DNA of 55,445 bases, counting the filler, from Streblomastix strix (taxonomy: Eukaryota), in assembly GCA_008636045.1 (NCBI GenBank). It is 2 parts of 2 records of this genome, joined end to end, with 100 filler letters (N's around TTAATTAATTAA, not from the genome) between each part and the next. Parts side by side here need not be neighbours in the genome. Positions count along the whole stretch, not along the records: positions 27,776 to 55,445 come from SNRW01000140.1; 1 more part is not named here. One strand, given 5' to 3'. A model generated the notes under the pieces. The model had not been told where the DNA came from, searched no databases, and saw only the letters and a list, made by a program, of their open reading frames with translations. Position numbers and translations under genes: made by a program. Positions 6,619-51,312 of this stretch are shown piece by piece. Positions within the stretch are counted from its first letter, which is position 1, and each line of letters begins with the position of its first letter.

Positions 6619-6620
<2 letters not shown>

Positions 6621-6666
<46 letters not shown>
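6621..6666. repeat. (TA)23 microsatellite inside the fibre gene
   Basis: 46-nt TA tract between GDNL and MDKQVMDYW. It shifts the reading frame (codon starts change from 2 to 1 mod 3). Confidence 0.95.
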
Positions 6667-6668
<2 letters not shown>

Positions 6669-10343: not shown

Positions 10344-10426
10344 CTTTTAACTGCACCGTGTGCATCGAGTCAAAAACTGTTATGAAAAGCTGTGGCCAAC
10401 TGGACAACTGGCCAATAATTGAGAAA
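10291..10426 (+). repeat. Intergenic iteron repeat, copy 1 (+)
   Basis: ATGAATGACTTTTAACTGCACCGTGTGCATCGAGTCAAAAACTGTTATGAAAAGCTGTGGCCAACTGGACAACTGGCCAATAATTGAGAAA. Confidence 0.9.
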
Positions 10427-10500
10427 CATTAAAAAAATAAAATCATTTATTCAAATCCAAAATAATACATATAAATTTTTATTTTTTTATAAATAAATTT

Positions 10501-10761
10501 ATGGCTACAGACATCTTTTCAAAAATCAAATAATTAGTTTAAAAAGTTTGGAAAGGTCTATAATGGGCTAATGATAACGTTTATAAACCATTCATAAAAC
10601 CATTTGCTAAACCAATACTTGGAACACTAGGTCCTGTTGGCTAAACAATAGATAAAAGTTTAGATGTTGCTAGTTCATTTCTTGATCATAGTTATGGTGC
10701 AGATAAAAATGGATAATTTAGATAAGATTTTGATACTTTAAGAAACGACGAATATTTATGA
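10501..10761 (+). CDS. Small protein with an N-terminal amphipathic helix
   Basis: Open 86-codon frame MATDIFSKIKQLVQKVWKGLQWANDNVYKPFIKPFAKPILGTLGPVG... lying between repeat copies 1 and 2. Confidence 0.65.
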
Positions 10762-10851
10762 TAAAAATTACCCATTGATATACAGAGTCGAAGAATATAA
10801 TTATAGAATCAATGAAAAACATAAGCATTAACGTTTGAAATTATAATTATT

Positions 10852-10950
10852 TTTCATAATTATTGGCCAGTTGGCCAGTTGGCCACAGCTTTTTATAAAA
10901 GTTTCTGACTCAATCCACCCAATCCACTCGGTCCATAAATATTCAATAAA
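10852..10950 (-). repeat. Intergenic iteron repeat, copy 2 (-)
   Basis: TTATTGGCCAGTTGGCCAGTTGGCCACAGCTTTTTATAAAAGTTTCTGACTC followed by variant 9-bp iterons. Confidence 0.9.
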
Positions 10951-11000
10951 TGATTTTTATTACATTGAGTATTTATTTAACTATTTCATTTTTTTATTGA

Positions 11001-12718: not shown

Positions 12719-12888
12719 AAGAATGAAGTGCCTGAGTACTTTAATCCGTTTATGTTTATACATTTTTTATTTTTTTAATTTACATATATAACTAACACCT
12801 AAACATTAATATAGTTAATTAAATAGGTCATTAGTTATATTCCCATTAATGATTTTTTTCACTTATTTTATAATAGATAGCTTCAAAT

Positions 12889-13272
12889 ATGACATCAATA
12901 TATAATTTACCATATATCACTTTAACATAAAATGACGAAGTTGTAATCGGAGAAAACGCTTAAGTGAGTAGAGTTGGATTTACATTACCATACGCGTTTG
13001 TAAATTCAGATAATTAAAGAAAAATAATATTCAGCTAATGTGATTTTTCAAACTAAGGCTCCAATGAGGGCATTTCTGTTCATAGTTCAATGGTTCAAGA
13101 AGAATAATATTTCGATTAATTTGTTGGCTATTGCAATGAATAACGTGTTTATAAGCCCTACATCTAATACAACCACAACAGATATTTATATGTATGGTTC
13201 CGTTAAAATTAAGAATTATTGGATATAAATTAATAGCTAAAATTTGTTCTTGTGTTGATGCTGGAATATTGA
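12889..13272 (+). CDS. Putative minor capsid (penton, single jelly-roll) protein
   Basis: Intact 127-aa ORF directly after the MCP: LPYAFVNS...VHSSMVQE...FDQFVGYCNE...YVWFR...FVLVLMLEY*. The pattern resembles small Maverick penton proteins. Confidence 0.6.
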
Positions 13273-13683
13273 AATAACTAATATATTTTTATTTAATTTC
13301 ATTTTTTATCACTATAGAAATAGCAAATATTGAGAAATAAAATTTACGATTAGAAAAATATGCGTTAATTTCTATGATAGATACTATGAAATTCTTATTA
13401 AAGTAAGCCGAAAGAGATGGAGAAGACTTAGAGTTTAAAATAATTGATTATGAATACGAATAAGAAAGAATAATTTATGCAAAATAAAAAATGATTGAAT
13501 CGATGAAATTAATTTAACAAGAGGCCGATTTAAGAAACAATGAATCTGAAATAGTTCGTAAGGAATAAATAAAGAGATTAGAATTTAAAATGTAAGAAAA
13601 AGAAGAAAAAATAAATTAAATTAAACGATTTTAAAATATATCGTTTTATTTTTTTTAAATCTAACTTTTTATCAGTACATTAA

Positions 13684-14294
13684 ATGGAATAAGTTAAAGC
13701 TACCGCCAAGATTTCAAACTACAATTTTCGTTCCGTTGAAGGTTCATATTGTGGCTTAAAATTGCTTATTAAATTAGATGATAATTACATTAATGCAACT
13801 AAACTTTATGAATAATATGATATATGTTTCAAATAATTATAGAGGCAGACTAAATTGAAGGAATATTTAAAAGCAGAAATGAAAGAAGTTGAGCCCATGG
13901 GAATTCGCACGGGCTAGTGGATGAATGCTATTGATAAAGGGGTTGATAACGAATATAAAATAATTGAAACAAAGAGCGGTTCCTCAAGGTAAAGAAACAG
14001 CTTATGTATTAGCCGTTTAATATATAGAGGTTGATGATAAAAATTATTCAATTTTGAAAGTTCGAAGAAGAAATAAGAAATGGGTTAGCAATAAATTTAT
14101 GTAAGAATTAAATGATGCGTTGTCATATTATGATTAAGAATGTATTGCTATGACCAAAAATGAAGCAATTAAAGAATATTTAAATAAAAATATGATAGCT
14201 ATTAAATTTAAAGGAATCAAATGTATATTTAATGAAGATTTAACTGATGATGTTATAAATAAAATTAAGAAATACACAACTTGAAGACGAATGA
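13684..14294 (+). pseudogene. KilA-N domain protein (internally deleted or frameshifted)
   Basis: GSYCGLKLLIKLDDNYINATKL is the KilA-N signature. The C-terminal part (RAVPQGKETAYVL...) is in another frame. Confidence 0.75.
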
Positions 14295-14684
14295 AAGACA
14301 TTATTTATTTTATTTATGTTGAAATAAATTGGAAAGAATATTATTTGACAATAAAAAAACAATAAATTTTCATCAAAATTATAAATAGAAATGGATGAGT
14401 AGGTAGAAATTTCACTCGAGGAGGAGGTCGAAGGATAGTCTAACGGACATAAATGTTTTGAGAGCTTAAACGATTTCAAATAATTTATTTCCTAAAATTA
14501 ATAATAATTATCTAAACTATCAACATAAAAATTAAATAAATTATATAAGTTGGAAAGTTATAAATTATCAAAAAATAGAAGGTCAAGTATGTATAAGAAC
14601 TTGTGCCAAAGATCAACTGAATAGGATTGAATATAAATTAGACTAGTTTTTGGATGTTCTGAACTATTTGGTCTATGCTCTGAA

Positions 14685-14776
14685 TTGAATGACTTTATAG
14701 TGTTCCGAGTGTTCCGAGTTAGAAATTTTTTTAAAATACTGTGGCCAACTGGACAACTGGCCAATAATTGAGAAAA
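14685..14776 (+). repeat. Intergenic iteron repeat, copy 3 (+)
   Basis: TGAATGACTTTATAGTGTTCCGAGTGTTCCGAGTTAGAAA...CTGTGGCCAACTGGACAACTGGCCAATAATTGAGAAA. Confidence 0.9.
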
Positions 14777-14789
14777 ATAAAGTCGATTA

Positions 14790-15613
14790 ATTATTCAAAT
14801 GTTGATGTTGAACTTATCCGTTTCAGATTAATTTTACAGCTATTCCACTCATTTCGTATTATACCACTAATGCTTATTGTTCAGTTAGTCGTACGTACTC
14901 ATACCATATTGTTTCTTTATCTGATGGTATAGAAAATTAATAGAAAAATTAATTAAATTTTAATCTGTTAAATGAGCCGAAGAACCATAATGAATCAAGA
15001 TTTGATTTAATTGCAGCATCTAAACCAATGATGTCCTATAAGCAAAGGAAGTATATTATTCAGGGCTATCGGTTCTTAAATAGCTTCTTCAAAAGTGTAT
15101 TATTTTTATTTTTTTAATATACTCATTGTATCATCAAATAAAACAATCGTATTAGGAAATTTTAAGTTAAAATTACCTTCTCCACTAGCACCAAAAATAT
15201 TAATTAATATATCATCTTTTGATTGTTCAGTTAGCTCTTTTTATAATTATTTTTCTTGTATCTCATCATACTCTTATTTGCAATCTATCAAATCATTCAG
15301 CATTTAATCCGCTTCGGCATATGGAATAATTTTAGTTAGAATTATAATTAAATCTTTCATCTTTTTTATAAGTTATGTCATTAATTGAGTCGCTCACGTA
15401 TATGAATAGCTTATAGCAATATTTTTTTAATTAGGTCAATTTAATTAGTACTTTGAAGATGTTGTACGTCTTACCACTTCCACGCTAACCTATCAATAAA
15501 TTTACAGAATAATATGTTAAATTTAATTCTTTATTAATATTTGTTTAAATTTCATGTTTATTAACTTTTATTTCTTTTAATATGTTATCTACTTTTTATG
15601 TTAAACTGGCCAT
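14790..15613 (-). pseudogene. A32-like (FtsK-HerA) genome-packaging ATPase
   Basis: MASLTQKVD... with Walker A NLLIGQRGSGKT, Walker B TIVLFDD, then LFKNRQ and FLCLQD. Frameshifted. Confidence 0.85.
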
Positions 15614-15654
15614 TTCTATATAATAATACATATTTTTTATCGGTGAGAAATAGA

Positions 15655-16766
15655 ATGTGAGAATTAACAGAATAAGAAATATAAAGAATAGTCAATGGGG
15701 AAGAAGCAAATGCAAGAAAGGAATTTGAAGCAGAAAGATGCAAAGGTGCAGGTGGGTAATCAGGCGCAGGTGGTGGTGGGTTGATGGAAATTGATGGAAA
15801 GGACGATGATTTCGATTATTATGAATCGCAAGCAGCAAGATAGGACAGAATGAAATCACGAGCAAAAGCGTTTAGTAAGCTACATTTTCATCCTTCAATG
15901 ATTCAAAGAACAAGAATGCATGGAGGTCCATAGTTTAGAGAGGAGGCTTGGGATGTCCTTGCTACACTTGTCGGTTATTTAAACAGAGATATTAAGAAAA
16001 TTAATAGTTTATCGCCTGCCGTTAGTGCTCAAAAATATATAAATGATAAACATTTGTGCAAACGATTTAGTGTATCAGAATAAGATTTAGATGATAATAT
16101 TGCAACACCTGATAATGCGGTTGTTGATGATAAGAAAAAGAATGCAATTTATTTAGTCGATGGTTATACAACAGCTGTAGGATTTGGAGACCCGGAACAT
16201 TAACATAAAAGAAATTGGAAGAAAAAATATTATTCAGATTTTAATAATTTAGAACGAGCAGCATTTGATGCATAATTAAAACAATAAGGAATAAAAGGCG
16301 GTCCTTTCATGAAATGGCTATCAATAACTAAGTTGTATAAAGTAAGAGAAATAAAACTACATAGTTTCAGAGCATTCACCGTCGATGCCAAAAAATTCAT
16401 GGACCAAAATGGAGTCGCATAATTGCAAATGGCTACCAAACAACAAATAATGGAACCTGCTTAGAATACTGTATTTTTTGCTCCTGCTGTAGATATATTT
16501 GAAAGATAAGACGGAAAAATAGACATATATATAATAGAAGCAATAAAACAAATGTAAAATTTGGGGATTATGAATATTTGCCACTTGATAAAAGAGTCAA
16601 TAAAAAAGAACTGCCTACAGTTATTGCTCAACTATATGCTGATAATCAGGTTGATAGTAAGATTTCATAAGCTCTTGGATAAGTTATGTAATATTATGGT
16701 GATATTTTAACACTGAGATAATAAAACATTAATGGTTATAAATTAGAAAAATATAAATTCGTTTGA
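15655..16766 (+). pseudogene. Conserved-looking viral hypothetical protein, divergent from the ATPase
   Basis: Long open frame with a Gly-rich linker and QDLDDNIATPDNAVVDDKKKNAIYLVDGY. A TGA follows the ATG directly. Confidence 0.55.
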
Positions 16767-16800
16767 ACATTATTTATTATTTATATTAATGTTTTTCATT

Positions 16801-16944
16801 TCTGGCCAGTTGTCCAGTTGGCCACAGCTTTTTATAAAAGTTTCTGACTCGGAACACTCGGAACACTCAAAAGTCATTCATAAACGATTCCATTTTCTCG
16901 TGCAAATTTCGACGATTTCGTTGTTGTTTTATGACTCAGAACAC
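16801..16944 (-). repeat. Intergenic iteron repeat, copy 4 (-)
   Basis: TGGCCAGTTGTCCAGTTGGCCACAGCTTTTTATAAAAGTTTCTGACTCGGAACACTCGGAACACTCAAAAGTCATTCAT...TTTTCTCGTGCAAATT...TTTTATGACTC. Confidence 0.9.
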
Positions 16945-17568
16945 CTATCAATCCAGTTTACTTATGTAATAATTAATTATTTTTATCTTGAATAAATGAC
17001 AGATAAATAGGGGGGTAAAACTCATAAAGACGAAGTACGCCTCCGATTGTGCCTCCGAATACGCCACAGATTCAAGCACTACCAGAGCTATTATCATTTA
17101 ATTAATCGCTTAGATAAACATAATAATAAATGACTTAAATGTAAGAATATATTGGAAGGGCACAAGCACGTGATTCTTAGCCAGTACCATAATTTTATAC
17201 TGAATAATTGCAATAGATATTAATGTAGGACTATATTATGTAAATGCAAACATGGAATTTTTAGCTATCACCTGAATTTTAAATGGAGCAACGACAATAA
17301 TAATTAATATAAATGTAGAATTTTATCACTTAGATGCAAGCACGAAATTATTAGCCATCACCAGAATTATCACCTGAACAATAACCCAAACAAGGCGAAG
17401 CTCGCGAAGTGCAGGAGGATTATCAACTGAATTTATGGCCTGAAAAATTAATTCTAAATGTTATTAGAGAATTAATGACGTTATATGACTCTGAAATATA
17501 ATGGAAAATAAATGTAAATGAATTAAGGTTTTAATTTTCATTAATTTTAGATAAAACTGGTTTAAAAA

Positions 17569-20500
17569 ATGGTAGAAACAATAGAGATATAGTTCGAAAT
17601 GTAATATTATAATCAGAACCATTTGCAAAACGAATCAGAAAGGACATTCAATAAGGCCTTCAAAACGAATAAATTATCGGTAATGCTTACGCTAAATAAT
17701 TTATGCAAGAATAGAATAACAAATAGCAAATGAACGCTTAAGACGAATAGAGCTAACAGCACAATTAATAATGGGAGCAAGTATTGGAAGATTAATGAGT
17801 CAAACATGCAAATTTGTTAAAAGAAATTAAAGAATAAAAAATAAACTTTAAGCAAAAATAAAATGGAAATGTGTTCAAAAATGTTATAGATGAAATTAAA
17901 GAATTCAATGAATCATTTAATGACAAAATTTTTAGGCCAATTGATGCTCTTAACGTCCTATAGAGTACGATTATGTTATGTGAGCCACAACTCAAATTAG
18001 AATATGAAAGAAGAATTAATTTTGAGCGAAAACGTATATAAAATTAACATATCAAATATGACCCATTTTATGTTTATACTATCAGCCTAACATAAGAATA
18101 TCATAAAAATGATTTGAAAACAATTGAAGATGTCGATGCTTATTTAGATGAAATAATTAAACGAGAATAGAAATTCGCATTCAAAATTGCATTTGATTTT
18201 GGAGTAGCTATTGAACAAGTCGATGGTTAAGAAAATGATTAATAAATAACATATAAAATTATTCATCCTCTTGAAGCCAGAACGGAGATGAGAGCACTGA
18301 CAACCATACGCACGCACTTAGATTTAGAAAATTATAAAAGATTCGTTAGAAACCACATAATTTAGATGCAAGAGAAAACCATTATGTACACCAAAGAGAA
18401 AATAGTTTGTATACATATGTTCAAACTACCACACACGTGTAGGTCGAACAAAACCATCATTATAGAAACTTATTATAAGGCAAGAGATTCGATATATTGA
18501 CCTTTAGAATAATAATTAAAATTTATGTTTCTTTCTAGCATATTCATTTATTACAATGTCAGATGTTAAAGAGGAACAATCACGTATAGCAGAAGCAAAA
18601 TGATTATTTTAAAGAATCTATGGAAAGATTATAGATGATAATTATTAAGGATTTAATTTTTCAACAGATGCAGATTAATTTATTTAGAACGAAAATTTAA
18701 ATATTAATGTACTCGCTTACGAAGAAACAACGGCAGCACTAACCGAACCATCAGTCAATTCATCAGCCAATTAAGGTAGTTATTATCTATGGAAATAATA
18801 CAGAAGAATCGAATAGAACGAATAAACTAAAAAGTTTAATGTTCTTTTAATAACTGACAAAATTAACGAATAATAAATGGCTCATGTTTTTTTTCATATA
18901 AACGATGTTGAGGCATTAACCGGTTTAAAAGATTGTTCTATTTGTGGTGCGCAGGCATATAAGACCAGAGATTCAAATTTATAACCTAAGCTAAAGAAGT
19001 ACATATAAAAATGTTAAAAAAATGTAGGAAAGATAGTAAAAAAAGTTTATTTAGAAAGATTTCCAAGACCATACGTTCCTCATATTTTGAATAATGTTAG
19101 CTATAAGTATCTTCTGGTTCAAGGTCGAATGGATAAATTCGAACCTACTCAATATTATATTTCATATGAAATTGAAACCGTTAAAATAATCTTTAATGAA
19201 TAATTAGGTGATAATTCAAACCAAATATCAATTCTAGAACGTCTTTCGATTGCAAGTATAATAAAAATAAAAAATAAAACATTAATTAAATTTATTCCAT
19301 TTATTTCGATACGCGAACAAAAGATTTTATTATCATATAGATAAAATAATTGTTAAAAGAATCCATAAAAGTTACTGATTCAAGCAAATATGAATATGAG
19401 ATGATACCACTGCATTACGAGGTGCCAGTAATTGGCTTCAATTCTTCAAAGTTTGATGTCGCATTAATTCTTAAAAATTTATACAGCGATGAATGGTAAA
19501 TAATTAAATATCTTGATAGCGGTTCAAACGCTAAATAAATCAATGTTAAACATAACATAATAGGAATCAAATTGCGATTCATAGATGCGATGATTTATTG
19601 AACAAAAATGAAATTAAAATAATTCATAAAAGATTTCACACCTAAAATAGCGTCAGCAATTCCAACCAAATTATAATTTCCATATGAATTCATCGATTAC
19701 GATAATTATAATAAAATATTGAATATTCCTTAGCCATTTCCGATTGAAGCGTTTAGAAAAACAATTAAAAATAAAAACTTAAGTCAAGAGAAATATTAAA
19801 ATTATTTATCTAATTCTTAGCATTATATAAATGGTTGGATTACCTTCGACACTATAACATTGAAGATACTCGATTAAAGATTCAGCCGTTGAATTACCTA
19901 ATTTATATGTTCTTCAATTATAAGATTGACATGTTGTAGTTCATGTCGATGTCAGCATGTGCTAATGCTATCAAATATGTCCTTGTTTATGGCGACTTCA
20001 AATTGGGTTAAGATTACTCGCCAAAAGATGATTATGCATTGTTCGTTCTAACATAAAATTTTTGAAACATTAAAGTTTAAAATTATCTGGAAAATGATAA
20101 AAAATAGAAATAGTGATACAAGCAACTACATCAAGGAATCAGATTGTGCGTTCTATAGAAAATTATTCCTATCAACAGGGTGCCAATTTTGTAAGGCACG
20201 ATTCACAAGCAAAATTCCTCCAACATTAGATAGAATCAACAACGACAGGGGCCATTCTGCAGATATCATAAAACCGTGCTGCTTATTCTGCAATAAATTT
20301 AAGTCAAATAAGGATGAAAATTTAACAAGATTAGTAATGCAATTAAAAAATTTCTGTCTGACAAAGTCCCTACCTATGACAATAACCGATGAAGAAATTC
20401 ATAAGATTTTACGTTCTGGAATCACTGGTGGATTATCATAACTCATGCATCGCTATAACGTGGCAGGTGAAACTAAATTAAATTAATTAAAATTTATTAA

Positions 20501-21935
20501 TGGAATGGTCATTAGTTAAGACACAGACCACACAATGACCCATCTTTTAACACTAGATTTCAACTGTTAATATCCCAACGTTATGAGCTCAGAGCCGCAT
20601 AAGTTCATCAAATATACAGGAAATAAATTATATATGGCGGGATAAATATTGAATAAAATTACTGATAAATTAGCAGCTATAAATTTAATTTATAATCCTC
20701 TACAATTTAGTGACGTTGAAAGAATGCCGTTATTTATCGCAATTGTTAAAGGACACATCGACGAATAACATATAAACGATTTCATTAATTTTCTTCCGAT
20801 TTTAAGAAACATAAATATTAAGACTGATTTAAAAACGTTAGGTTCATATATATATAATCTACTAATGAAAAATAATATGTATCATGACAAAATTGAACGA
20901 AAATTAACAAATTTATCATCAACTCATGGATAATTTATGTCCCTCAATAATTATTATTTGTGGCTTCTCATTGATGATTTTCATTTCATTATTGACGATA
21001 TTTAATATGTTATAACATTCACGAAGCATGACAGATTCAATCCATTTGTTAAGGAATTTATGAATCAAAGAATATAAGCAATAAAAAGAAAATATAAAGG
21101 AAAATAATAGTTCTATAAATTAGCTATGAACTCAAGCTATGGAAGTGATGGGATGAATTAATAAAAATATTCGCAAACGAAATTGTTGAGCTCTGATAGG
21201 ACATGGTTGTCTCATCTCTAAGGTTCATTCGTTAATGATTAATAATTAAAAGAGGATTTATTTTCAGTTTAATTTAATGCTGAGAGTTGAAACTGCAACA
21301 CTTGCCTACATTCTGCGTATTTCGTGTCAGATAATAGCAAATATTGGTATATAAATTTTATCTATAATTCTATTGTTAAAACTTTCGATATGTACAAGAG
21401 GCACTATATTTGTGGTGATACTGATTCTATGACATGGGCCATCAGTGGCAACTCCAGCGTTGAAGAGGGACATAGACAGAAATTTAATTATTTAATCAAG
21501 GACTAGAAATTTTTCGATGAAAATTATCCTTTTTTCTTCGGATAATTTAAACAATTATTGGGAGTGAGTTATGAGGCAGAAGGAACGGCTTGCATTGCTC
21601 TAGCTCCAAAAATTCATTACATTTATAATCCTCTTCCAAATGAGAATGAAAAGGATTACAATTATTGTTTGAAAGGAATAATATAAAAATAAAATGTTCA
21701 ATTAAATGATGAAGCATTTAAATAATCATTAAATGGTTAATAAATTTGTGCTCAAAATATTATTCTCGGTTAAAGAAATAAATAAATGTCAAAAATATAA
21801 ATAAATAAAGTTGGTTTAACATCAATTCATAATAAAATGGTTGTTCTTGAAAATTAAAGCTGTGCTCCATTCCTGTATTTTAACAGATAACAATTGAGTT
21901 CAGAAAATTATATAATTGCCAATGATGAGCACTGA
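17569..21935 (+). pseudogene. Protein-primed family B DNA polymerase (pPolB)
   Basis: Exonuclease motifs YEIET, VIGFNSSKFD and YNIED; FPYEF; ITGGLS; polymerase motifs LDFNCQYP (A), KLAMNSSYG (B) and GDTDS (C). Frameshifts are present and the start is approximate. Confidence 0.92.
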
Positions 21936-21946
21936 TGATAGGCACT

Positions 21947-22077
21947 AACGAAAAGCATTGAATAAGAGCGATAAATTGGAATAGGTTATGAATGACTTTT
22001 AAGTGTTCCGAGTGTTCCGAGTGTTCCGAGTCAAAAACTTTTATAAAAAGCTATGGCCAACTGGACAACTGGCCAGA
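21947..22077 (+). repeat. Intergenic iteron repeat, copy 5 (+), three iterons
   Basis: ATGAATGACTTTTA(AGTGTTCCG)3AGTCAAAAACTTTTATAAAAAGCTATGGCCAACTGGACAACTGGCCA. Confidence 0.9.
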
Positions 22078-22159
22078 TTGTTAGGTCGGTCTTCCGATCT
22101 CTGCCTGCGGCTGATTTTATTGGTGAATTGAATATAAATTGTTTTTTTTTAAGAAATAA

Positions 22160-23571
22160 ATGTAAAACGAAAATAGTTTATATGAGGAGATACTTAGGAC
22201 TTTTGCTGATGATAAATATCAAAGAGAGGAAAATGATTTTGAAGTATAATAAGATATCGATGATAAAGCGTATAAAGTTCATTATAAAATGACTCTGAGT
22301 TCATAAAAAATATCTTTAAAATTGTAAAGAAGAAAAAATTGATGTTATTGTAGAAAAAGCTGATGAAATAATTATTGGAAAACGAACAATAGCGGGTTGG
22401 TACTGTTATTATATTTCAATTTAATAGCAATTTGTACCAACAAAATAAAATAAATAAAAAAATAAATAAATAGACAAAGATGTTCAAGATTCTGTGATTC
22501 GGTCTAAAGACACATCCTCACCCGTTTAAGGTGGTGATATGGAAAATATGTCCTATTATCCCTTCAAAACAAAATTAAAATTATTTGGAAAAATCAATAA
22601 ATAAAAAATATATTTATAATTAAAAAGATGTATAAGTACAGATGAAAGATTATAAATTAAAACCATTATAAAGACTACAACGACCATATTTCTCTCCAAA
22701 GTTAGGGAGCTGGGATATAGATATAGTCTTTTCATTCGATTAATATTTATAGGAAACCAATGATGAAAATGATGATGCAATCTTTGAATAGAACGAAATA
22801 AGATAGCATACAGAATAGCATTGAAGAAAAACAAATTTATATCTATTTTGCATAAACATTAATACAAAATATTTAGTAGTATATCCATTGATTTATAAAT
22901 CAGCTGCATAAGTAGTTGGGTAATTGTAAAAAATAATAAAAAAATTATTACGTAAATAATATTCGTGGTGATGGAGAGAAAGGATTTAATGGTTCTTATT
23001 TTGCTTTATTTTGTTCTGAGAATTAGATTATTGGATATTTCACTGAATCAAAATTTACTAATTATAATCGAGTTGTCGATTCAGTGATTCGTACAATAAG
23101 GAATGCATTTGGTTATAAAATTAATTAATTTTCAACGAATAAATAAATATAAATAGTCGTTGATATATACAATGATACTCGATATCTAGCGTTTCAAAAT
23201 AAATATAGCTAATATTAAGTTCAATTGTCAAGAGATTTCGAAGGATTGTATATATTTGTTCATAAATGAAGAAATTTGAGCGACAATTAGTAAGATAAAG
23301 ATTACAAGGAATATTATCATTTAAGGTTGGAAATATAATAATTGTACATCTTGATTTCTAAAAAACATAATAAAATTTTATGAAATAAAGAAAAAATTTC
23401 AATTAATTAGCGGAATTCATTAAATATGTGATTGATAATTTCATATACCGATTATTGAATCATTCTTATGAAACTAACATAATAAAAATACCTTAATATT
23501 ATTGTAAAAATGTAAGTGAAAATTAGGAATCACTACCAGAATATTATGCTACAGAATTTAAATTTAGATGA
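22160..23571 (+). pseudogene. Retroviral-like (rve) Maverick integrase
   Basis: RPYFSPKLGSWDID...YLFCININTKYLVVYP...IRGDGEKGF...NRVVDSVIRTIRN...IYNDT. TGA stops and frameshifts. Confidence 0.85.
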
Positions 23572-23621
23572 AACAAAATTTTTAATTATTATTATTTTTT
23601 CAATTTTTTATTTAAATTAAA

Positions 23622-23956
23622 ATGACAGATAATCAAGCCATCAATGATACAACATAATCGGAGTCTGCATAAATGGATCCATAAAATTTAGCGAAATAAG
23701 GAAGATCAAAGAAATATACCGATAAAGAATAGGCAACGATTGCTGCTAGAGAACAGCGCAAAAATGCAAGAAATAGATACAATTAAATTAAACAGATTAT
23801 GTTTCTAAAGTTAATGATATGCAATTATTAATCATTAAAGAACTTAAAAAAAATTATCGAGAATATTAATGATTTGTTAACAATTAACGAATTTATTAAA
23901 AAAATGAACCTGTAAAAAACATTAACGAAGATGCAAATGATGATATAGACGTTTGA
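23622..23956 (+). pseudogene. Small basic putative DNA-binding protein
   Basis: MTDNQAIN...KQGRSKKYTDKEQATIAAREQRKNARNRY, a GRPKKY-like motif followed by a basic helix. Frameshifted in A-runs. Confidence 0.45.
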
Positions 23957-23993
23957 AATAAACAATTTATTTTTATTATTTATTTTTCTCACT

Positions 23994-24164
23994 TCTGGCC
24001 ATTTGTCCAGTTGGCCACAGCTTTTTAAAAAAGTTTCTGACTCGGAACACTTGGAACATTTAAACGTCATTCATTACCTATTACATTTTCTCGTGCAAAT
24101 TCCATAAATTTCATCGATGTTTTATGACTCGGAACACTCGGAACACTATAAACGTTCAATAAAT
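23994..24164 (-). repeat. Intergenic iteron repeat, copy 6 (-), with a second iteron block
   Basis: TGGCCATTTGTCCAGTTGGCCACAGCTTTTTAAAAAAGTTTCTGACTCGGAACACTTGGAACA...TTTTCTCGTGCAAATT...GACTCGGAACACTCGGAACAC. Confidence 0.9.
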
Positions 24165-25149
24165 CATGTTCAATTATTCATGATTTCACTAACAATTTCA
24201 GTGTAGCAACTTCAATAAATTTTAGATTTCCAAATATCAGAAGATTTTTTTATTTAGGCATAATAATATTGAATAATTCGCAAGATGGATAGCTTTTTTA
24301 GATATTTCTGATATGTATAGAGATGCACTTCCTCATATTGACACTATTATTCATAGTGAGTGTCCGAATTCATATAACGATTAGTTAGTTTATTCAATCA
24401 ATATATTTTAGCAAAAAAATTAAATTTTGACAATGGAAAATCTCAATGAAACTTAAAAATTATATTCAAAGGATATTATTGATGCTGTTAAAGTTGAACA
24501 CATATTGCAGAGATGATTTTCTTGGATTAATCAGCAAGAACTGAAAAAAAAAACATACATATAAATTACTTAATTATATTCCGGATAATGATGGATATTT
24601 TGTCTTAAATTGTGTTATTTTTAATATTAAGTAAATTTAATTAAAAAATTATTTTAATGAAAAAAAATCAAAAAATTCGTAAATGAGTGATTCCATCCAG
24701 AACTAATGAGCTTTATTTTTTTATGAAAATAATTTATAAATCATTTTAGAAACAATTTTTAAAAAATTAAAAAATCTTAATTTTGCTTAATTGGAAAAAG
24801 ATGAAAAAAATAAAAATTTCTTTTTTTTTGCCTCAAAGATGCATTATTAGATTAATGTTTATATTTATATTAATATAAATAAATATTTTAGTTATAATTA
24901 TTACAAATTTCTTCAGTTTTTACGGCAAGAGCAAACACAGTCGGCAATTTTTAATTATATTTTTTACTGAATTTTTTTATAAGTGTAAAATTAAGATTTT
25001 TGCATTAATGAAAATTATTAATATAAGTAATTTAAATGTTTTTAATAGAGATAAATTGAAGCAAATTAAATAAATGAAACATTTCCAAATATAATCGAAG
25101 AAAAATAAAATAAAATATATAAAGATAATATAATTTTAAGTACGATAAA

Positions 25150-27357
25150 TTAGATAACTGTAAATATAAATGAATTTGTGCTTGATTTATTGCTAAGATA
25201 ATTAATCGAACTATTAAGGGCAGATTATGCTACAACAGAGACAGGAGAAAAAATAGACAATATACCATTAGAAGTTCTGAATAACTTCAACATTTCAACA
25301 TTTTTTTGTATAACTTAAATTTAAAAGTTTGATGCTATGTTATTCTATTGAGAAAATCGTCAATTAAACGTGGGTTGTGTTATGGTATTAGATTAGTCAT
25401 ATAAACGTTGTCACTTATTATTCGTTGTACCATAGGATCTGGAGTTCACGAAGGTGAATCTGTTATAATTCTAAGAATGATTTTAAACATTACTGATGAC
25501 GATCTTCCTTTCGTTTTACATAGAAGATAATTCCTCGTTAAAGTATGTTATGCAATGACAATAAATAAAAGCTAAAGTCAAATACTCAATAAAGTAGGAC
25601 TTTACTAACTTCTTTAAGTATTAACACATGATTAGTTATACGTCGTATTGTCGAGATGTAAGAAATATAATGTTCTGAAAATAATTTCCTACGACTTCAA
25701 CTCGAATAAAAATAAACATATTTTAACAAATATTGTAGTGTTCTGCAATTTTGCCAAAATTACCAAAATGTAGTTTTTTTGAATGGCGTAGTTTCCAAAT
25801 ATGAAATGATTGAAAACAAAAATTAATAAAAAAAATATACAAAAATTAACTATAAAACATTTATTAGTTTAAATTGTTATTTCATATAAATTTGATAATA
25901 ATGCATATATTTAAAATTAAATTTAATTTGATCTGGCGATTAAATAATAAGTTTTTTTTAAAAATTAAATTTTTAGCGATTTATTTCCATAGATAAATTA
26001 TTAATAGGAGTTAATATATATGATTATAATATATATTATAAATATAATTATAATAAATTATAAGGGCGATCATAATTATGTGTATCTATGAAGATATTGG
26101 CAGATGGCGGTGCATTTTCCACTTTGGTGAAAATTTTTAGCTTTGGCGTAATTTTGCCAAAGGGAAATTTTTTTCGCCAATAGGGAAAAATGCATTGCCA
26201 AAGGCAAAATCATCATCACTAACAATACATCTTAATTGCCTGGTTACTCAAATCAATAGGTAACAATAAATTCTATAAAAAGATTATAATTTCAAAATAT
26301 TCAATGTCATGTTGGCCTAACGAACACACTGGAAAACAAATTTTTTTTTATAAACTACAAATTTATGTGTTAATTCTAATAGTCTATATATGAAATGAAA
26401 ATACATTCGTAAAATCTTTAAAAAATAGTTATTTCAATAAGTTATAACCAGCTTATAACGAACAAAATGTTTAATTTACATTTTCCAATATATTCATAGT
26501 ATGAATTAGTTAGCATTTTTTATATTTGGTTTATTTTCTTCCGATTTAATAAATTTATACAACTTTTCAAACAAATTACCAGTTGTACATTTCAGTGTAA
26601 TAATTTTTGTTTTTATCATTTATGTCATACTTTTACTTTAAATTTTATGCTATATTAATTTAATTTGCACATTTAAAGTTCAATTATGTATAATTTAATA
26701 AATGATTTCTACTGTACATCCGGGATTTTAGTTAAGAAACTCATTTTGATAAAATGACATATTTCTCTTAACACTTCCACTTTATATATTTATCTTTATT
26801 CTGAACCTATTATGTTCTTATGAAATACCTATAAATATTACATACAAATATAAATTTTACACACTCAACACTTTCTGATTTTTTTATATAATTTTTTATT
26901 ATTTTATTTTCTTGCTTTCTCAACTAAATGATTCTTTCAGTTTGTGCTGATACATATATCAGTATGTATATCATAAATACTTTAATTTTATATTATTGAG
27001 ATCTTTATATTTGGCTTATTTTACAATTACTTTTCCATTTTTATTAATTTTTTATCTTTAAAGTTCAAATAAAAACATACTCAATAAATATAATATATAT
27101 GATTTGTCTTTTATTTTATTAGTATAAACGAGTTATATATGAAAATATTAAAAATTACCTTAATTATATTATTAATCTTCGGATAATTGAAATGAATAAT
27201 TTTACTATATTTTTCACCACCCTGTAAAATAATAAATTTGCTTAAAATTTATTTTTTACTGGCAATTACGCCCGCCATAAAATAAAATTTGGCAAAATTG
27301 CATGTCAGTAAAATATTGTTTGATTTTATTGCCACATTTGTGGCAGGTCTTAACTAG
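25150..27357 (+). mobile_element. Helitron 3' remnant (Pif1 helicase C-terminus, hairpin, CTAG end), split by a hAT insertion
   Basis: LPFVLHRRQFLVKVCYAMTINKSQSQILNKVGLY...HDQLYVVLSR...TNIV (25150-25735). After the insertion come the hairpin TGCCACA-TT-TGTGGCA (27330-27345) and CTAG|T (27354-27357). Confidence 0.85.
25736..27310. mobile_element. Non-autonomous hAT-type element
   Basis: Imperfect TIRs TAGTGTTCTGCAATTTTGCCAAA / TTTGGCAAAATTGCATGTCAGTA, and a perfect 8-bp TSD AAATATTG at 25728-25735 and 27311-27318. Confidence 0.88.
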
Positions 27358-27675
27358 TGTTTTTAATTGATAGAATAAATTTAACAATAACTTTTTACTT
27401 ACATATTAAATCTGAAAATTAATTATTATTTGTATATTATATTCCTATTTTAATATAAAATTGATTAAAACATTTCAATATTTATATCTTATATACCAAA
27501 TTATTTCACATCAAATTTATATCTAAAATATAATATAATTCATACTTTATAATTAAATTTTAACAATATAATTGTCTTTAATAAATTTTTCTAGAAGACA
27601 ATGGCTGTAGATAATTTTAGTACCAACGTTCTTGCGCGGTATTTCGTCTTTTTTCAATTTTTTTTTTCAAATTCA

Positions 27676-27775
27676 NNNNNNNNNNNNNNNNNNNNNNNNN
27701 NNNNNNNNNNNNNNNNNNNTTAATTAATTAANNNNNNNNNNNNNNNNNNNNNNNNNNNNNNNNNNNNNNNNNNNN
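27676..27775. other. Artificial contig-joining spacer
   Basis: Exactly N44 + TTAATTAATTAA + N44 = 100 nt, a six-frame stop linker. The flanking pieces are nearly equal in length (27675 and 27670 nt). Confidence 0.92.
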
Positions 27776-44610
<16,835 letters not shown>

Positions 44611-45627
44611 TTCGACGAATTGTGGTATGGAGCCTAATTGAGCCAGTTTGCTTAAATGATTTTTTATTTATTTTATATACTTTTAGTTTAATATTTGGTA
44701 AATGGCAATTTGCTAAGAAGTAGTTTAATAGATATTGAGTACATCATATATTTCAAAATTCGAGATAATTATATTTTCAAAAATGATAATTAGTAATAAT
44801 TATTAATTTTTTATAAAATAGGATAATTGGTAAAGTAAAAAACAGTGATAATATCAAAATTTCATTAATTAATGTTCATCATTTCTTAGAAAAATTTTTT
44901 TTAATCATTTTTATATGAAATTAACCAATAATTATTAAAAATATTATAATGTACTATGTTATTTTTATTAAAATTTAAAAATTCATTATATTTTGTAGTT
45001 ACATTGAATTTATAATATTATATATAGTCATTCCCTGCTTTTGTAAATTTATAAATTTTTGCAAATGAATATATACTACAAAATCATTCTTTAGATAACT
45101 AATATTGAAAATTTTTCATTTTTTTTAAAAGTTTAACTTTAAATGCTTAAAAATTAAAAATTCAATATTTTCTTTAAAATAATTATTATTTAATGTTATA
45201 TTTAGCAAATATGGGTTGTAGTCAATTGAAGAGGATTAGTGCCCCACATCAAAGAAATTAAATAAATATATGCAAATAAATTATGTTAAGTAAATAAATT
45301 ATATAATTAAATTAATTTAATAAATAATACAAAGTATTGTAAGACAGAATATTCATATGAATTAAGTTAATGAATAACATGACTGATAGAGGTTAATGAA
45401 TGAATTAAAGAAGTACGTAATTGATGCTCATTATTGCGTTGCATTTTTTGTACGTATAACACTCATCGTCTTCATATAACTACATAAGTAGGTAGATGGT
45501 GTAGAGTCATGGTTTATCGTTAATGGAAACTTAATATGTGTTGATGAAATCATTGAATATTTGAACATACACAATATAAAATTTATGAAACGTGAGTGGA
45601 AAACTTCAATAGAAGAACGTAATTGGC

Positions 45628-45740
45628 ACATGAAATTGATATGGATAGTGAATTTCTTTTAACTGCACCGAGTGCATCGGGTGCACCGAGTCAAATGAGT
45701 TTTATGAAAAATGCCAAACAATGCAACAGAAGGTCGAAAC
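45628..45740 (+). repeat. Diverged iteron repeat, copy 7 (+)
   Basis: AAATTGATATGGATAGTGAATTTCTTTTAACTGCACCGAGTGCATCGGGTGCACCGAGTCAAATGAGT. Shares TTTTAACTGCACCG.GTGCATCG with copy 1. Confidence 0.85.
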
Positions 45741-45759
45741 ATGAAAAAATAAATTTGAT

Positions 45760-48202
45760 TCAAATGTTTATATCATCATTTATATCTTCATTAACATAAT
45801 GATCTTTTTCTCTTATCCTATCATATAATTTTATTAAATCTTCATTCAATTTATATATGCATGTCAGATTTCTTGAAATCATTTTGTATATGCTTTGACA
45901 TTTATTTTTTAAATATAATTAGAATGATTTTTCTTTACCATCGTACGGTTTGAATTATAATGCAATAGTGCAACGCACGTCTTCTTTAAACGCTTGATAA
46001 TTTTATAAGATTACACCATCTAGTTATGAACATGATACTCTAATTATATCTTTTTTCGCTTCTGTGAATGGAATGATTCTTTGATTCCATCTTTCAAAAT
46101 TTCTGTTTATAAAATAAGTAAATATTTTTATTGTAAAATTTAGTTGTGAAACCATTTGATAGAGAAGTGAAATATTCAACTTCATCTCTATGAACTGCTT
46201 TACATCTCAATGCAACATAACGTCTAATATTAGCTTCAATCATGATTGAGAAATCGTTGATGGTCAACAGTATCAAATTCATGACATTCTCCTACGTTCT
46301 GCGAGGTTAATTTTTCTCGTTTATTCTTATTGAACTTTCTGTTTTAATTGACTTCAAAGCATCCATGTTCGAATATCTTGCTTCTCCAAAGTTTTTGAAG
46401 TCATCAGCTATTCCAAAAATTATATTTTCAACGACAGAATTAAATTGGCCTATAAATTCACTAAAATTCATAATATTTTTAATTGAATAAGCAGCTAATA
46501 ATTCACATAAAATTTCTGTGAATCTGTTCTTGCTTATACCTTAACTTGCATTACAATACCAATGTCACCTCTGATTTAACACCAACATTTTATATATCTA
46601 ATGCAAACCAATTAAGTATATTATTGGATAAATTTTCTTCTTTTGCAGCAATTTTTTCACATATTATATTTAAATAATCGTTAATTAGGCCTTCATTAAC
46701 AGTAGGCAATTATTAATATTTATAGCCTTAAAATATACTGAAAATTTTCGATTCATCAATTACAAATCTAATACATCTCAAAGCAAATAGAGAATGGTAT
46801 TGTTCAAATGTATTTTTTAATGATACTTTCATTTATTCATCATCACATATTTTTACTATTTATAACTAGTCAAAAACCCCTGTTTTAGTCATATATTCAA
46901 ATTTATTTTTTTTATTTATTGCATCGTATTATTTGATAATAAATACTGAGCCACCATGACTTGACGAATATCTTTAAATTCGAATTAAATCTTATGCAAT
47001 TAAATTTTATTTTATCATTCTATATTCTCCATTAAATATTTATTCTTATACACCTATTAGTGTAAATTATCTCTTAAGTCAATTTCAAACAAATTAATTT
47101 ATTTTTTCTTCTTTAAATTTTGATTATAAATATGGTTTTATCGCATCGATTTAATATTATTGATTATGATATTTATCAATCTTTTATAGAAATCAAAGGT
47201 TTGCTTTCGAATAAAATCTTGACTTTTTGAACTCCCAATTTTGAATAGCATTTTCATTTAAATTATTTTATGTCTAAAAATTGATATAAGCACCATCAAC
47301 GTAATATTTAATTTCATCTTATGAAAACCTATCAACAAATTCATGCCCATTTAGTTTTGTAAATAAGCATAATAACATTATCTCTCGTTCGACTTTCTAA
47401 GAATCATTATGTATCTATAAATGTTAAATTCCTTCAACTAATAATTCAGCTAATTCTTTATTCATTTTTCTTAATGAAGCATCATTAATAATTATTCTCT
47501 TTTCTTCATCAAATTATGCTCGTAAATCTCTATCATTAATATTAAATATTTTATCTAATTTTGCCAGATAATTTTTTCTATCAAATTATTTAAATCATAA
47601 TATTTTAAATTTATTTTTTTCTAATTTTTTCTTCTCTAATTGTTGATCTTGGAAGAATTACAAGTATTTAGCTATCATTTATATGAGAAAATATATCAAC
47701 ATCGAAATTTTCAGTATGAATGATTTTAAGTTATGAATTATTTTTAATTAGATTTTCATCTTTATCAATGTATATATGTAATCGTCCGTGTACTATCTTA
47801 GTGAGTCCATCATTAGAAGATAAATTTTCAATAATTTAATTTCTTATTTCTGTTATTTTTTCATCCGCCAAATCTTTCTTGATATTAAAATTCATTATAC
47901 ATAATTATTCATCGCATTTGCCTAAATCAACTGTTTAACCTGTATTTGAACCTTTTTTCTATTGGTATGCTTCATAAAATTGTATAATGGAGTAATAGCT
48001 TCTTTAAATCGTTGGCAAATAGTTAAATTTTTATATTTCAAATTATTTTAGATATATTTGTTTGAAAAGCTAAAATTATTTTGTTAATTTATCTCTTTTT
48101 CTTTTGTTCATCGGTCAAATCATCAGTTATTTCAGATGAATATAACAAATTATTTATAGCATTTGTTTGATTTTTGACTGACTCAGCTTTTGAAGATGCT
48201 AT
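45760..48202 (-). pseudogene. AEP-type primase-polymerase fused to an SF3 helicase
   Basis: N-terminal GQTVDLGKC..CIMNFNI, VHGRLHIY and FDVDIFS..LVILPRS (degenerate Prim-Pol motifs). C-terminal FSIFQGY, ILNWF, QGISKNRF, GQFNSVVEN, INEK and IRRYV. Many frameshifts. Confidence 0.75.
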
Positions 48203-48292
48203 TTTATATACTGCTAAAAAGTTGAATTAACTAAAAACTTTTTGAGTTTTTTTTAAATAACGTTAGTTACTTATTTTTTTAATTTATTATCT

Positions 48293-48405
48293 TCCGACTA
48301 TCTGTCACATCGACTGACATTTTTAGTAGTACTCATTTGACTCAGTGCACTCGATGCTCTCGGGGCAGTTAAAAGTAATTCACTATCCGTATCAATTTTT
48401 CATGT
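48293..48405 (-). repeat. Diverged iteron repeat, copy 8 (-), inverted partner of copy 7
   Basis: ACTCATTTGACTCAGTGCACTCGATGCTCTCGGGGCAGTTAAAAGTAATTCACTATCCGTATCAATTT. Confidence 0.85.
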
Positions 48406-48778
48406 CATAATCATGAACTTTTATATTGCAAAATTAGTGTGCATAAACAGTTCAAGATATCAATTTAAAATTTGTTTCTGAATTCTACATTTCAACATTG
48501 TATATAAATTTCAATCTCAAGGCTAAAATGAAACATTAATTTTTTGGCTTATTTTTGGCTCTATTTAAAAGTCTTTATAAATTGAAATTAAAAAATTAAA
48601 AATAAAAAAATAACTTTACTTCCATGAAATTTTAAAATCATTTGATAATCAACTATATTTACCTTTCATATATGCTGATTCCGAATATGATTGCTTTTGC
48701 TTAATCTGAAACAATTGATTAGGCTCAATTATTGGTTTTATTTTACGCGAATAATTAAACATTTTTATTATTATTGAA

Positions 48779-49393
48779 ATGAAAAGTCCTTCAATTTCAG
48801 AAATATAACCATAATTCGAAATGGAAATTGAAGTAAATGCTGTTATAGTTGCAGTTACATCACAAATTGACCCATTTCAGCAACCATTTCAGCAACAAGT
48901 CGCTGAAAGCAGCATTTCTACGAAAGTTATTAGATGTGAAACGCCAACCTTATCAGCAAGGCATAGAAGTTCAATATTTGAAGAAACTTTAACTCCAGAC
49001 CCATCAATGTGTCGTTGGCTGTTGGATATCATTAGTGACGAAGAACACATAGTTTAAGAATCTGTATATTTCTTACTATCTGAAAATTAGTTGATTCTGA
49101 TTAATGCTTACACTTTTGATGTGCATGAAAATTAAGTTTGATTTAGTATAGAGGACGAAGGATGTTGTGGTAGATTCCGCAGTAATTCAACTTAAACATT
49201 AAATGAAACATTAATTAGAAACGTTAGTGTTCTGAAGCAAGACATCGGAAAAGAAAATTTATTAAAGTATAGTTACAAAATTTGGATAAAAAAATTTGAA
49301 AAAAGAACATGTATTTTAGATTTATTTAAGATTACAAGTAAAATTCTCTACACAATATCAAAAGTATTAATGACAGTATTAAATAAAATTTGA
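48779..49393 (+). pseudogene. Viral hypothetical protein (~204 aa)
   Basis: MKSPSISEIQ...CRWLLDIISDEEH...EGCCG...VLNKI* in a single frame with one internal TGA (49139). Paralogue at 5047-5504. Confidence 0.7.
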
Positions 49394-49499
49394 AACCGTT
49401 AATAAAATATTTTTATTTTTATAAAATGGATGGAGATTTACATATGTTTGACGTTGTTCTAAATAAAATAACGAGACAAATTAAATGACAAAAGACAAA

Positions 49500-51312
49500 T
49501 CCAACACAAATTTAGATAAGAAAAAAGATTTTGAGTAAATAATGCAAGAAGAAACAGAAAAAAAGGAATTAAATAAAAAAGATTAAGAGAAATAATAAAT
49601 GATTAAATAAGATAATTAAGAGAAAACGTAAACGTTAAGCTTTAAATAAAATAGTGAGAAAGAAAAAGAAAAAATTAAAAGGATAAAGAAGAATATTAAA
49701 AAAAATATAAAAAGTGATGAAGATCAGGACGATGATTAAGATTACGGTGAATATGAATAATTCTATGAAGAAGAAACTGAGAAATATGAAAAAAAACGTT
49801 AAATAATAAGAAAAATTTTCAGAAAACATAAATTAAAAAGAAATGAAAATAGAATGAGAAGTAAATACTAAACTAAAAATAGCCAAAATATTACAGATAA
49901 AGAAATTGAATAAAATGATTAATAAGAAATTGATGAAATTTAATCCGATTCCTAAGACAAAAATTCTGAATTCAAAAAAATTGATTAATATTCAAAAGAT
50001 TCCCTTGTCTATCTTCAATATAACTTAACCGAAACATTACCGTTCTTTTTTCCTCGTCTCGTATACAAAGGAAACGAAATAATTAAATATGTTGTGAATG
50101 CTTCACCTGAACTCAAAGAACAACTTTAATAAACTATTGTACTTTCTGTTGAGTTAAGAGAATCATAAATAGCAAAAGAATTTGTAGCAGTTTATATGAA
50201 ATATATGATGCATAGATGGTTGAGCACTTCTGAAATAATACATTTCATTAAATTACAAATATTAGCAGTTGCAAGATCTACTCTTGTCGAAATTAATTGA
50301 CTATTTTAATCATACAACTTCATTTCATCTATCCTCTATTTTATCACATAAGTTGAAGGAGAAACGGTATAAGATAAAGGTGTTTTCTCAATTGCATTTT
50401 AATAAATTCATACTTATAACAATAATTATTGACTAACCCTCAATGAATGTTGATAAATAAATATTAATATTAATCATTAATGAAATTATTAATGAAATAA
50501 TAATTAATGATGTTGTAATCTCTTCGTTTGCTTTATCATGATTAGTAATATTTTTGATACAATAAGCAAAATTTTTCTAAACAAAAATAAACAAAAAAGG
50601 ACAAAAATTTCAAAAAGAATACATTTTTACACTAAATTGATATAAACATAAGAATTAGGGAAGTAATTGATGTTTAAAAGGAAGATTCTTGTGAAGATTC
50701 AGCTTCAGAAAATTTTATCAATTCATTAAATGATTTAACAAGCACAGAATTTGAGGATTCTGAAGACTTGGATGTATAGGATTTGGAGATGAAAAATAAA
50801 AAACCGGAATAAAGAGAACAGCCCGAAGGATTATAACAAAAAGAATAAATATAAAATCAACATATACATGAATAAAATGAATAAATTCCGACTCATAAGA
50901 ATATTTTGAATGAATTGAAAGAGAAATATATTTTGTTGAGAGTGAAAAACTAAATTAGAATTCTAATAAAAAAACATATATTCACAAATGAAAAATAAAA
51001 ATATTTGAAGTGATAAATTAAATTCATAAATTATATATCTTAGATAGAGAAATTCCCTGTTTGGATGGTTAAAATAAATGAAAAAGGTTGAAATGGTATG
51101 GATGGCTAAGAGGTACAAAAATATTGAGAGAATGTGCCGATTTCGCCTTTCGCTTACACGAAACAGTAGCTTCAGAGGCTTGATGTGAACGTTTAATTGG
51201 TGAATCAACATTTGTAAATGGTGACAGAAGAGGAAAACTTAGAATAGAGATTCTATTAGGAATTCTCTAAATAATTCATTAGTTAAAATAGAAACTATAT
51301 TATTAATTATGA
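49500..51312 (+). pseudogene. hAT-family transposase remnant
   Basis: HRWLSTSEII (an RWxS motif) and a C-terminal dimerisation-like segment CADFAFRLHETVASEA*CERLIG...DRRGKL. Decayed. Confidence 0.6.

Follow-up and report, generated by a model that had tools for sequence, protein, structure and literature searches.

An inactivated primase-helicase gene boxed by inverted iteron units in a relic of a Maverick/Polinton-like virus of Streblomastix strix

How did a viral primase-helicase gene in the genome of Streblomastix strix come to lie in reverse between two inverted repeats? The question is raised by positions 45628–48405 of a stretch of 55,445 nucleotides (nt) from assembly GCA_008636045.1, referred to here as the window. 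It consists of two parts, contig A and contig B (the latter from SNRW01000140.1), joined by a run of N at 27676–27775. A sequence-only reading had described the locus, which lies in contig B, as an AEP-SF3 primase-helicase gene exactly enclosed by a repeat pair and flipped relative to contig A, and had taken it for an example of cassette inversion within the window. What we find is a broken full-length helicase gene between inverted, iteron-bearing units in a 4.1-kb relic of a Maverick/Polinton-like virus. We favour, with moderate confidence, the reading that its reversed orientation goes back to old recombination between the units and that no active switch is involved.

The repeat pair itself is real. 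A repeat search places the arms at 45633–45753 and 48278–48398 (121 nt, 81% complementary), and blastn aligns 45628–45753 with 48405–48278 over 128 nt at 80.5% identity (E 2.3e-26). The arms had been put at about 110 bp; they measure about 125 nt, and they do belong, as proposed, to the same iteron family as the copies in contig A. The sole gene between them is the AEP-SF3 primase-helicase frame on the minus strand, which starts with an ATG at 48111, 166 nt inward of the right arm, and stops at 45762–45760, 6 nt from the left arm. With a profile of 39 relatives, we could confirm that this gene alone is enclosed, since profile positions 13–760 of 766 map to 48095–45802 on the minus strand. The reversal relative to contig A was borne out as well. 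The helicase core at 46169–47183 matches contig A 4203–3198 in reverse sense (59% identity, 1040 nt, E 9e-45), and the block downstream, which holds a hypothetical gene (hyp) and the start of a fibre gene, matches in the same sense (48934–49464 with contig A 5046–5575, 76.6%, 530 nt). The claim that the same two genes follow on the plus strand in both contigs is therefore correct as to co-linearity, but the shared block is only 530 nt long and the fibre gene of contig B stops after 20 codons.

What the arms enclose is a pseudogene. The AEP-SF3 label fits its family: Pfam DUF5906 is matched in one of the three minus frames of the box (E 1.7e-8), the SF3 helicase P-loop domain is present (family profile E 7.5e-53 over 46546–46085), and the family profile matches the PDB chain of the NrS-1 'Primase' at E 2e-29, a match of sequence. 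The frame is open only if TAA and TAG are read as glutamine, and even then it is broken: homology steps through frames -3/-1/-2/-3, which takes at least three frameshifts, and meets three internal TGA codons. Motif I (DxD) of the AEP catalytic site is lost, the boxed copy reading MNFNI in place of the IDIDI of its relatives, in which D10 and D12 are nearly invariant. The Walker A sequence QGIGKN, invariant in 25 aligned relatives, is changed to QGISKN in the boxed copy and to QGICKN in the helicase fragment of contig A, here called A1, so both copies are inactivated. Since the box holds a pseudogene and itself lies within a relic, there is no working switch at this locus.

Intact relatives appear to share domain order and folds with the AEP-SF3 primase-helicases, namely the NrS-1 primase-polymerase, the PrimPol of African swine fever virus (ASFV), the SaPI5 enzyme and poxvirus D5, whereas the boxed copy has lost both its DxD motif and the glycine of Walker A, and its frame is broken. 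The structural model of one relative, P0019 (pLDDT 68.5), matches full-length AsfvPrimPol in Foldseek (E 3e-6, 762 columns, with a TM score of only 0.26), the C-terminal region of NrS-1 (E 1e-5) and the SaPI5 primase-helicase (E 3e-3). In another relative from outside the window, gene model P0003, the helicase continues into an HNH_3 endonuclease domain, so that the downstream neighbour of the helicase varies among copies. A search of IMG/VR with the helicase protein returned no relatives. With the helicase alignment, the same database gave six distant loci (27–33% identity), in none of which the helicase is boxed by a repeat; the sole repeat pair at these loci is a 50-nt AT-rich pair in L004.

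The box lies in a multi-copy block between host genes. Depth was summed from contigs, not reads, at a likeness of at least 85%, using run X1, labelled termite gut metagenome, which shares 62% of the sampled words of 44000–50000 and contributes 3,505 related contigs to the stretch. The summed depth is 1.4e4–1.1e5 across 45340–49681, compared with 11–98 to the left of 45005 and 44–157 to the right of 49682. At the left edge it steps from 11–98 (42000–45005) to 753 (45006–45339) and then to 25,830 (45340–45673). High depth between such low flanks means that the block belongs to a very large family of repeats and is set in single-copy DNA, in keeping with a Maverick/Polinton-like endogenous virus present in many copies. 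The neighbours are host-like: a giant hydrolase gene on one side and, on the other, an open reading frame (ORF) at 49452–50300 with host-like codon usage. Positions 45.33–49.5 kb are thus a 4.1-kb relic of a high-copy endogenous Maverick/Polinton-like virus between host genes. Three joints that skip parts of the region (45328->49588, 45328->49905 and 42339->48763) were taken as spurious, their sides being about 21 nt long in AT-rich sequence.

Within the relic, the segment outside the left arm has no similarity to the 3′ end of pPolB, the DNA polymerase gene of contig A. On the other side of the box, 39 of the 46 relatives of hyp align from their own residue 1 to position 48779, and 45 of the 46 continue into fibre repeats. 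The frame shift in hyp is due to a 1-nt indel relative to contig A, and similarity between the two contigs ends at 49464.

The reading of TAA and TAG as glutamine is shown directly in the DNA of the window. Tables 11 and 4 were discarded as the code because they leave the window almost without long ORFs. With TGA as the sole stop, a frame of 5,445 codons opens at 27654–43991 on the minus strand; it contains 497 TAA and 92 TAG codons (589 together) and a single TGA, the terminal one, compared with 119 and 289 TGA in the other two frames of the same stretch. Within this frame Pfam recognises the ubiquitin C-terminal hydrolase domain PF00443 (E 3e-20), and together these observations identify nuclear DNA of a eukaryote that reads TAA and TAG as glutamine. 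The giant host ORF in this frame (27654–43913, 5,419 codons) is intron-free, has long poly-Q runs and reaches the N run at the contig edge. The proteins closest to the helicase and to hyp carry the NCBI label Streblomastix strix, the identity to A1 being 70%. Rfam at gathering scores and ARAGORN returned no matches and no transfer RNAs, respectively. Endogenous viruses of S. strix are reported to use the same code (PMC10120064).

The two arms of the box are members of a larger family of units. Iterated nhmmer searching gave nine matches in its third round: eight units, c1 to c8, and a partial copy in tandem next to c6. The same set is recovered with a profile made only from c7 and c8, the arms of the box. 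The units are about 140 nt long and are ordered as follows: about 2.6 copies of an 8-mer (GGCCAGTT), a TATA-like palindrome (CTTTTTATAAAAG), TGACTC, two or three 9-nt iterons, and AAAAGTCATTCA. Their orientations run -,+,-,+,-,+,-,+, a strict alternation with a chance of 2/256 by simple arithmetic if the orientations were independent. The core GGCCAGTTGTCCAGTTGGCCA occurs at six sites, all in c1–c6, with none expected from 100 shuffles. The two units c7 and c8 are without this 8-mer core and share only the distal half. Iterons are uniform within a unit and come in three types, GGAACAC (c3–c6), G[GA]TGCA (c1, c7 and c8) and AATCCAC (c2). Among the eight, c7 and c8 resemble each other most (75% identity overall, 85% in the core); their identity to c1–c6 is 45–66%. 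The first unit, c1, joins the 8-mer core of the contig A type to the iteron type of c7 and c8; this mixed make-up suggests exchange between units or putative typed binding sites.

Table 1. Positions of features within the window.
Feature	Positions	Strand	Description or evidence
Full-length but inactivated AEP-SF3 (D5/NrS-1-like) primase-helicase pseudogene	45760–48111	-	Pfam DUF5906, profile, broken frames
Left arm, unit c7	45606–45753	-	Three 9-nt iterons of G[GA]TGCA type and AAAAG.AATTCA box
Right arm, unit c8	48278–48427	+	Repeat search, blastn, nhmmer
Left end of high-copy viral-relic block, outside left arm	45330–45605		Depth rise; no recognised gene
Spacer between c8 and hyp	48428–48778	+	High-copy depth continues (13,840–26,493); ends in AT-rich promoter-like motif catttttattattattgaaATG before hyp ATG
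hyp, conserved N-terminal part of fibre gene models	48779–49141	+	5′ end intact; frame shift near 49135
Fibre gene start (MDGDLHM...)	49427–49489	+	Cut after 20 codons
Helicase fragment A1	2712–4287	+	Without AEP domain and C-terminal part; frameshift 3524/3526; TGA at 3997
Foldback (MITE-like) element	4260–5012		Arms 4260–4511 / 4761–5012, 252 nt, 73% complementary
c1, profile match	10291–10430	-	nhmmer
c2, profile match	10848–10929	+	nhmmer
c3, profile match	14685–14779	-	nhmmer
c4, profile match	16787–16926	+	nhmmer
c5, profile match	21943–22077	-	nhmmer
c6, profile match	23981–24119	+	nhmmer
c7, profile match	45613–45711	-	nhmmer, E 3.6e-18
c8, profile match	48334–48414	+	nhmmer, E 3e-12
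c1(-)/c2(+) box	10291–10929		Conserved 86-codon gene, ATG 10501, stop 10759–10761, + strand
c3(-)/c4(+) box	14685–16926		Decayed packaging-ATPase-like frame (-) and ORF 15784–16716 (+)
c5(-)/c6(+) box	21943–24174		1.9 kb after pPolB; last 170 nt resemble helicase 3′ end (+), possible remnant A2
AT-rich motif sites	48755–48778, 49400–49426, 5507–5533, 10470–10500, 8640–8668		Candidate viral promoter, separate from units

In contig A, pairs of units in the same (-,+) arrangement box other genes too, so boxing is the ordinary layout of this virus family. The gene between c1 and c2 is matched by residues 1011–1075 of the gene model P0075, which align with 10537–10731 at 77% over 65 residues; no family is known for it. 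Between c3 and c4, the ATPase-like motifs stand in different frames (Walker A GQRGSGKT at 15490–15467, IVLFDD at 15147–15130). The c5/c6 pair may hold a remnant of a helicase, A2. The sequence just inside c6 matches that just inside c7 at 62.7% over 169 nt with 44 bits, a score reached by one of 100 shuffles (29.6 +/- 4.4), and an acidic tail with a TGA lies at 23930–23956, just before c6. Four of the units follow closely on stop codons: the distance from stop to unit is 17 nt for c1, 7 nt for c5 (pPolB stop at 21933–21935), 7–25 nt for c6 and 6 nt for c7. Beyond the window, the core 21-mer found one locus in IMG/VR (an unrelated octamer array, 43% GC) and two in JGI metagenomes (unrelated octamer arrays, 65% GC), and an iteron 20-mer found 24 loci in GTDB genomes, all of them chance matches of at most 33 nt.

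Contig A supplies the arrangement against which the boxed gene appears reversed, and that arrangement is itself damaged. A1 covers only profile positions 171–664, lacking 1–170 and 665–766, and a search for a repeat unit next to it came out empty (best E 0.24); the profile from c7 and c8 alone likewise finds nothing near it. A foldback element of about 750 nt, resembling a miniature inverted-repeat transposable element (MITE) and unrelated to the iteron units, fills the junction between the truncated helicase and a hyp that is without its 5′ end, homology beginning at 5046 with no ATG after the preceding TGA. The sequence-only reading had itself warned that a MITE with a deletion occupies this junction and that the two helicases are diverged paralogues. 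The foldback, the loss of both ends of A1, the truncated hyp and the lower DNA identity of the helicases compared with hyp/fibre are in keeping with these warnings. It had also allowed that MITE-mediated fusion might account for the contig A arrangement altogether, and this is nearly what we see, a foldback joining a helicase fragment to a 5′-truncated hyp.

Contig A is otherwise co-linear, with hyp and fibre followed by a gene at 8.7–10.27 kb, the small boxed gene, a capsid-like gene at 11.0–12.9 kb, the ATPase-like frame and pPolB (PF03175, E 3.2e-6, 19965–21290), the last of which is absent from the contig B relic. From fibre to pPolB, the decayed ATPase-like frame is the one recognised gene that does not lie on the plus strand. 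The candidate for the double jelly-roll major capsid protein of such a virus is the frame at 11.0–12.9 kb, which has no Pfam match and was matched by eye only, to a capsid protein of S. strix listed in PMC10120064 (supplement file 2, Table S3). The fibre gene (5393–8031, plus strand) contains many diverged tandem copies of an acidic repeat of about 22 residues (D.IDAYSKTEDDALLLLKADK-like), which appear as a dense set of internal DNA matches. Directly after the last unit of contig A, at about 25400–25750 on the plus strand, a frame resembles the C-terminal motifs of a Pif1/Helitron-type helicase (...AMTINKSQ...LYVVLSR...); it was recognised by eye and has no Pfam match. No integrase or recombinase Pfam family (rve or tyrosine recombinase) was found in the parts scanned, an incomplete scan of an element whose ends are undefined; it covered contig A 1–5400, 14780–16786, 22078–23980 and 24120–27674 in six frames, 8100–14700 and 16900–20000 in the plus frames, 39 ORFs and the minus frames of the box.

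With the endogenous Maverick/Polinton-like viruses of Metamonada (Bellas et al. 2023, PMC10120064), the element shares its code, pPolB, a primase-helicase, a very high copy number and frequent decay, together with a possible capsid gene whose likeness was seen by eye only. In contrast, alternating units of about 140 nt that box single genes are not described in the consulted parts of that paper, and an integrase and terminal repeats were not identified in the parts of the window scanned.

The reading that we favour starts from the layout of the units. Neighbouring units point in opposite directions, so that homologous recombination between two of them would turn round the module that they box, and such a flip in the ancestry of this copy or of its subfamily would leave the helicase facing away from hyp and fibre. 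The breakpoints coincide with unit edges, as recombination at the units predicts. The gene model P0002 fuses the C-terminus of pPolB to an AEP-helicase on the same strand; with the helicase co-directional with pPolB there and, possibly, in A2, and with the contig A genes on the plus strand, the copy in contig B is the odd one out. The claim of cassette inversion thus stands in part: the reversal and the flanking repeats are real and recombination is plausible, but one cassette in two states was not shown.

Several observations weigh against this reading. No event was seen, as none of the 15 joints listed (of 30, from contigs of run X1) changes strand and no contig shows both orientations, a comparison made with contigs only. 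A simple flip of a pPolB-helicase arrangement would put the 3′ end of pPolB to the left of the box, where it does not lie, and the helicases are far more diverged from each other than are the hyp/fibre blocks. The units show no consistent orientation relative to the gene upstream. A1 is too damaged to define a reference arrangement, and A2 rests on a DNA match with p of about 0.01 and a tail of nine residues at a place where the helicase profile finds nothing. As depth at 85% likeness is high throughout the block, helicases of the contig B subtype may always lie this way in their subfamily. Fused gene models are uninformative on the gene upstream of hyp, since in all 46 proteins that contain hyp at most 33 residues precede the homology; such models could show co-directional neighbours only.

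If no inversion took place, both arrangements would be accidental juxtapositions of decayed fragments, that of contig A made by deletion or fusion associated with the foldback and that of contig B, with its helicase box and its 0.7-kb hyp/fibre piece, by different insertions or by deletions within a nest of elements. We consider this rather unlikely. It would accommodate the cut ends of A1, the truncated hyp and the foldback in the gap between them, as well as a contig B block that is only 4.1 kb long and cut on both sides, the unequal divergence of helicases and hyp/fibre, and the Pif1/Helitron-like fragment after c6 (seen by eye, without a Pfam match) as a sign that other repeats interrupt these elements. 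Breakpoints that match unit edges speak against it. So, weakly, does the depth: it stays high without a break from c8 across the spacer into hyp, and the loose ends listed (another 628 were not) do not pile up at the edge of c8, a weak hint of a junction common to many copies. The arrangement might also be a chimera, put together from a high-copy repeat family when the metagenome was assembled, and here the number of related contigs, the shortness of exact-match contigs inside the block (282–473 nt) and the scaffolding of the window with N runs have to be set against two exact contigs. One of these (48088–48560) spans the helicase 5′ end, c8 and the spacer, and the other (45372–45685) runs from the left flank into c7; both may derive from the same reads as the window. 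Moreover, arms that are only 80% alike cannot by themselves mislead an assembler, and we regard a chimera as very improbable.

We are equally sceptical of the proposal that a non-autonomous, MITE-like transposon has colonised the virus and that the units are its terminal inverted repeats, each (-,+) pair being one insertion with its cargo. Inverted copies are indeed paired 0.4–2.6 kb apart, a different foldback element lies nearby in contig A, and MITEs are on record within a giant-virus genome (PMC4495683). The boxed contents, however, are core viral genes, namely the helicase, the ATPase-like frame and a small gene found at the same place in P0075. The outer ends of c1/c2 and of c3/c4 are unequal in length and do not match each other, no copy lies outside a viral context in the window, and no target-site duplication is evident at 45606/48427, where the edges are fuzzy. 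Least probable of all is a programmed, recombinase-driven cassette of the shufflon or Hin/FLP kind that is still active. Inverted sites flank the segment and the alternation of eight units resembles a multi-site inversion system, but the gene inside is dead, the arms differ by 20%, and neither a recombinase or integrase family in the parts scanned nor a strand-changing joint among those listed was found.

Known inversion systems can be set beside this locus. In the L/S isomers of herpes simplex virus, the flip-flop of plastid inverted repeats and the FLP system of the yeast 2-micron plasmid, both isomers occur in one population and the arms are near-identical. In these systems a unique segment between inverted repeats, a layout also seen here, can take either orientation relative to its neighbours; here, in contrast, one locus has a single orientation and its arms are 80% alike. 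Bacterial shufflons and Hin/Gin segments need a dedicated recombinase and switch the expression of live genes. They too separate gene segments by several short alternating sites, whereas here neither a recombinase, in the parts scanned, nor a live gene was found.

What, then, might the units do? An AT-rich motif (TTTTTATT[TA]TTAT) stands 4–12 nt before the ATG of hyp, of fibre (in both contigs), of the small boxed gene and of the gene at 8669. Given this separate motif, the units are not needed as promoters for those genes. A promoter role was considered and judged less likely, also because the minus-oriented units c1 and c5 face back into plus-strand genes that end there. When five units were folded as single strands, z ranged from 0.00 to -1.71, with no hairpin signal, and Rfam has no match to the units. 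Their position after stop codons in either orientation, together with their typed iterons, suggests that the units are putative protein-binding elements at gene boundaries. Judged from sequence, their likeliest role would be in transcription termination or insulation, or in replication or recombination. A bolder proposal, which we think improbable, is that the units make each gene module separately invertible or exchangeable, as in a shufflon-like eukaryotic virus genome, and that the typed iterons co-vary with a binding protein encoded by the element, for example the primase-helicase.

In phage P4, the alpha primase-helicase gene is flanked by the iteron-bearing ori and crr. The likeness to the present locus is that a D5-type primase-helicase gene has iteron clusters to its left and right. 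Here, in contrast, units also flank unrelated genes, with six more of them in contig A, and protein binding is putative.

The locus singled out at the start does nothing itself; it is the fossil of an endogenous virus whose kind is known. The part of interest, in our judgement, is the set of alternating iteron units that box genes, rather than the single boxed helicase. In some protists, integrated Maverick/Polinton-like viruses take up much of the genome, and the organisation and rearrangement of these viruses are poorly known, especially under altered genetic codes. An architecture of iteron-typed, strictly alternating units at gene boundaries, each pair boxing a gene, did not turn up in the literature searched. 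If these units drive the inversion or exchange of modules, they would explain the mosaicism among copies and would be candidates for the sites that the virus's replication or transcription machinery binds.

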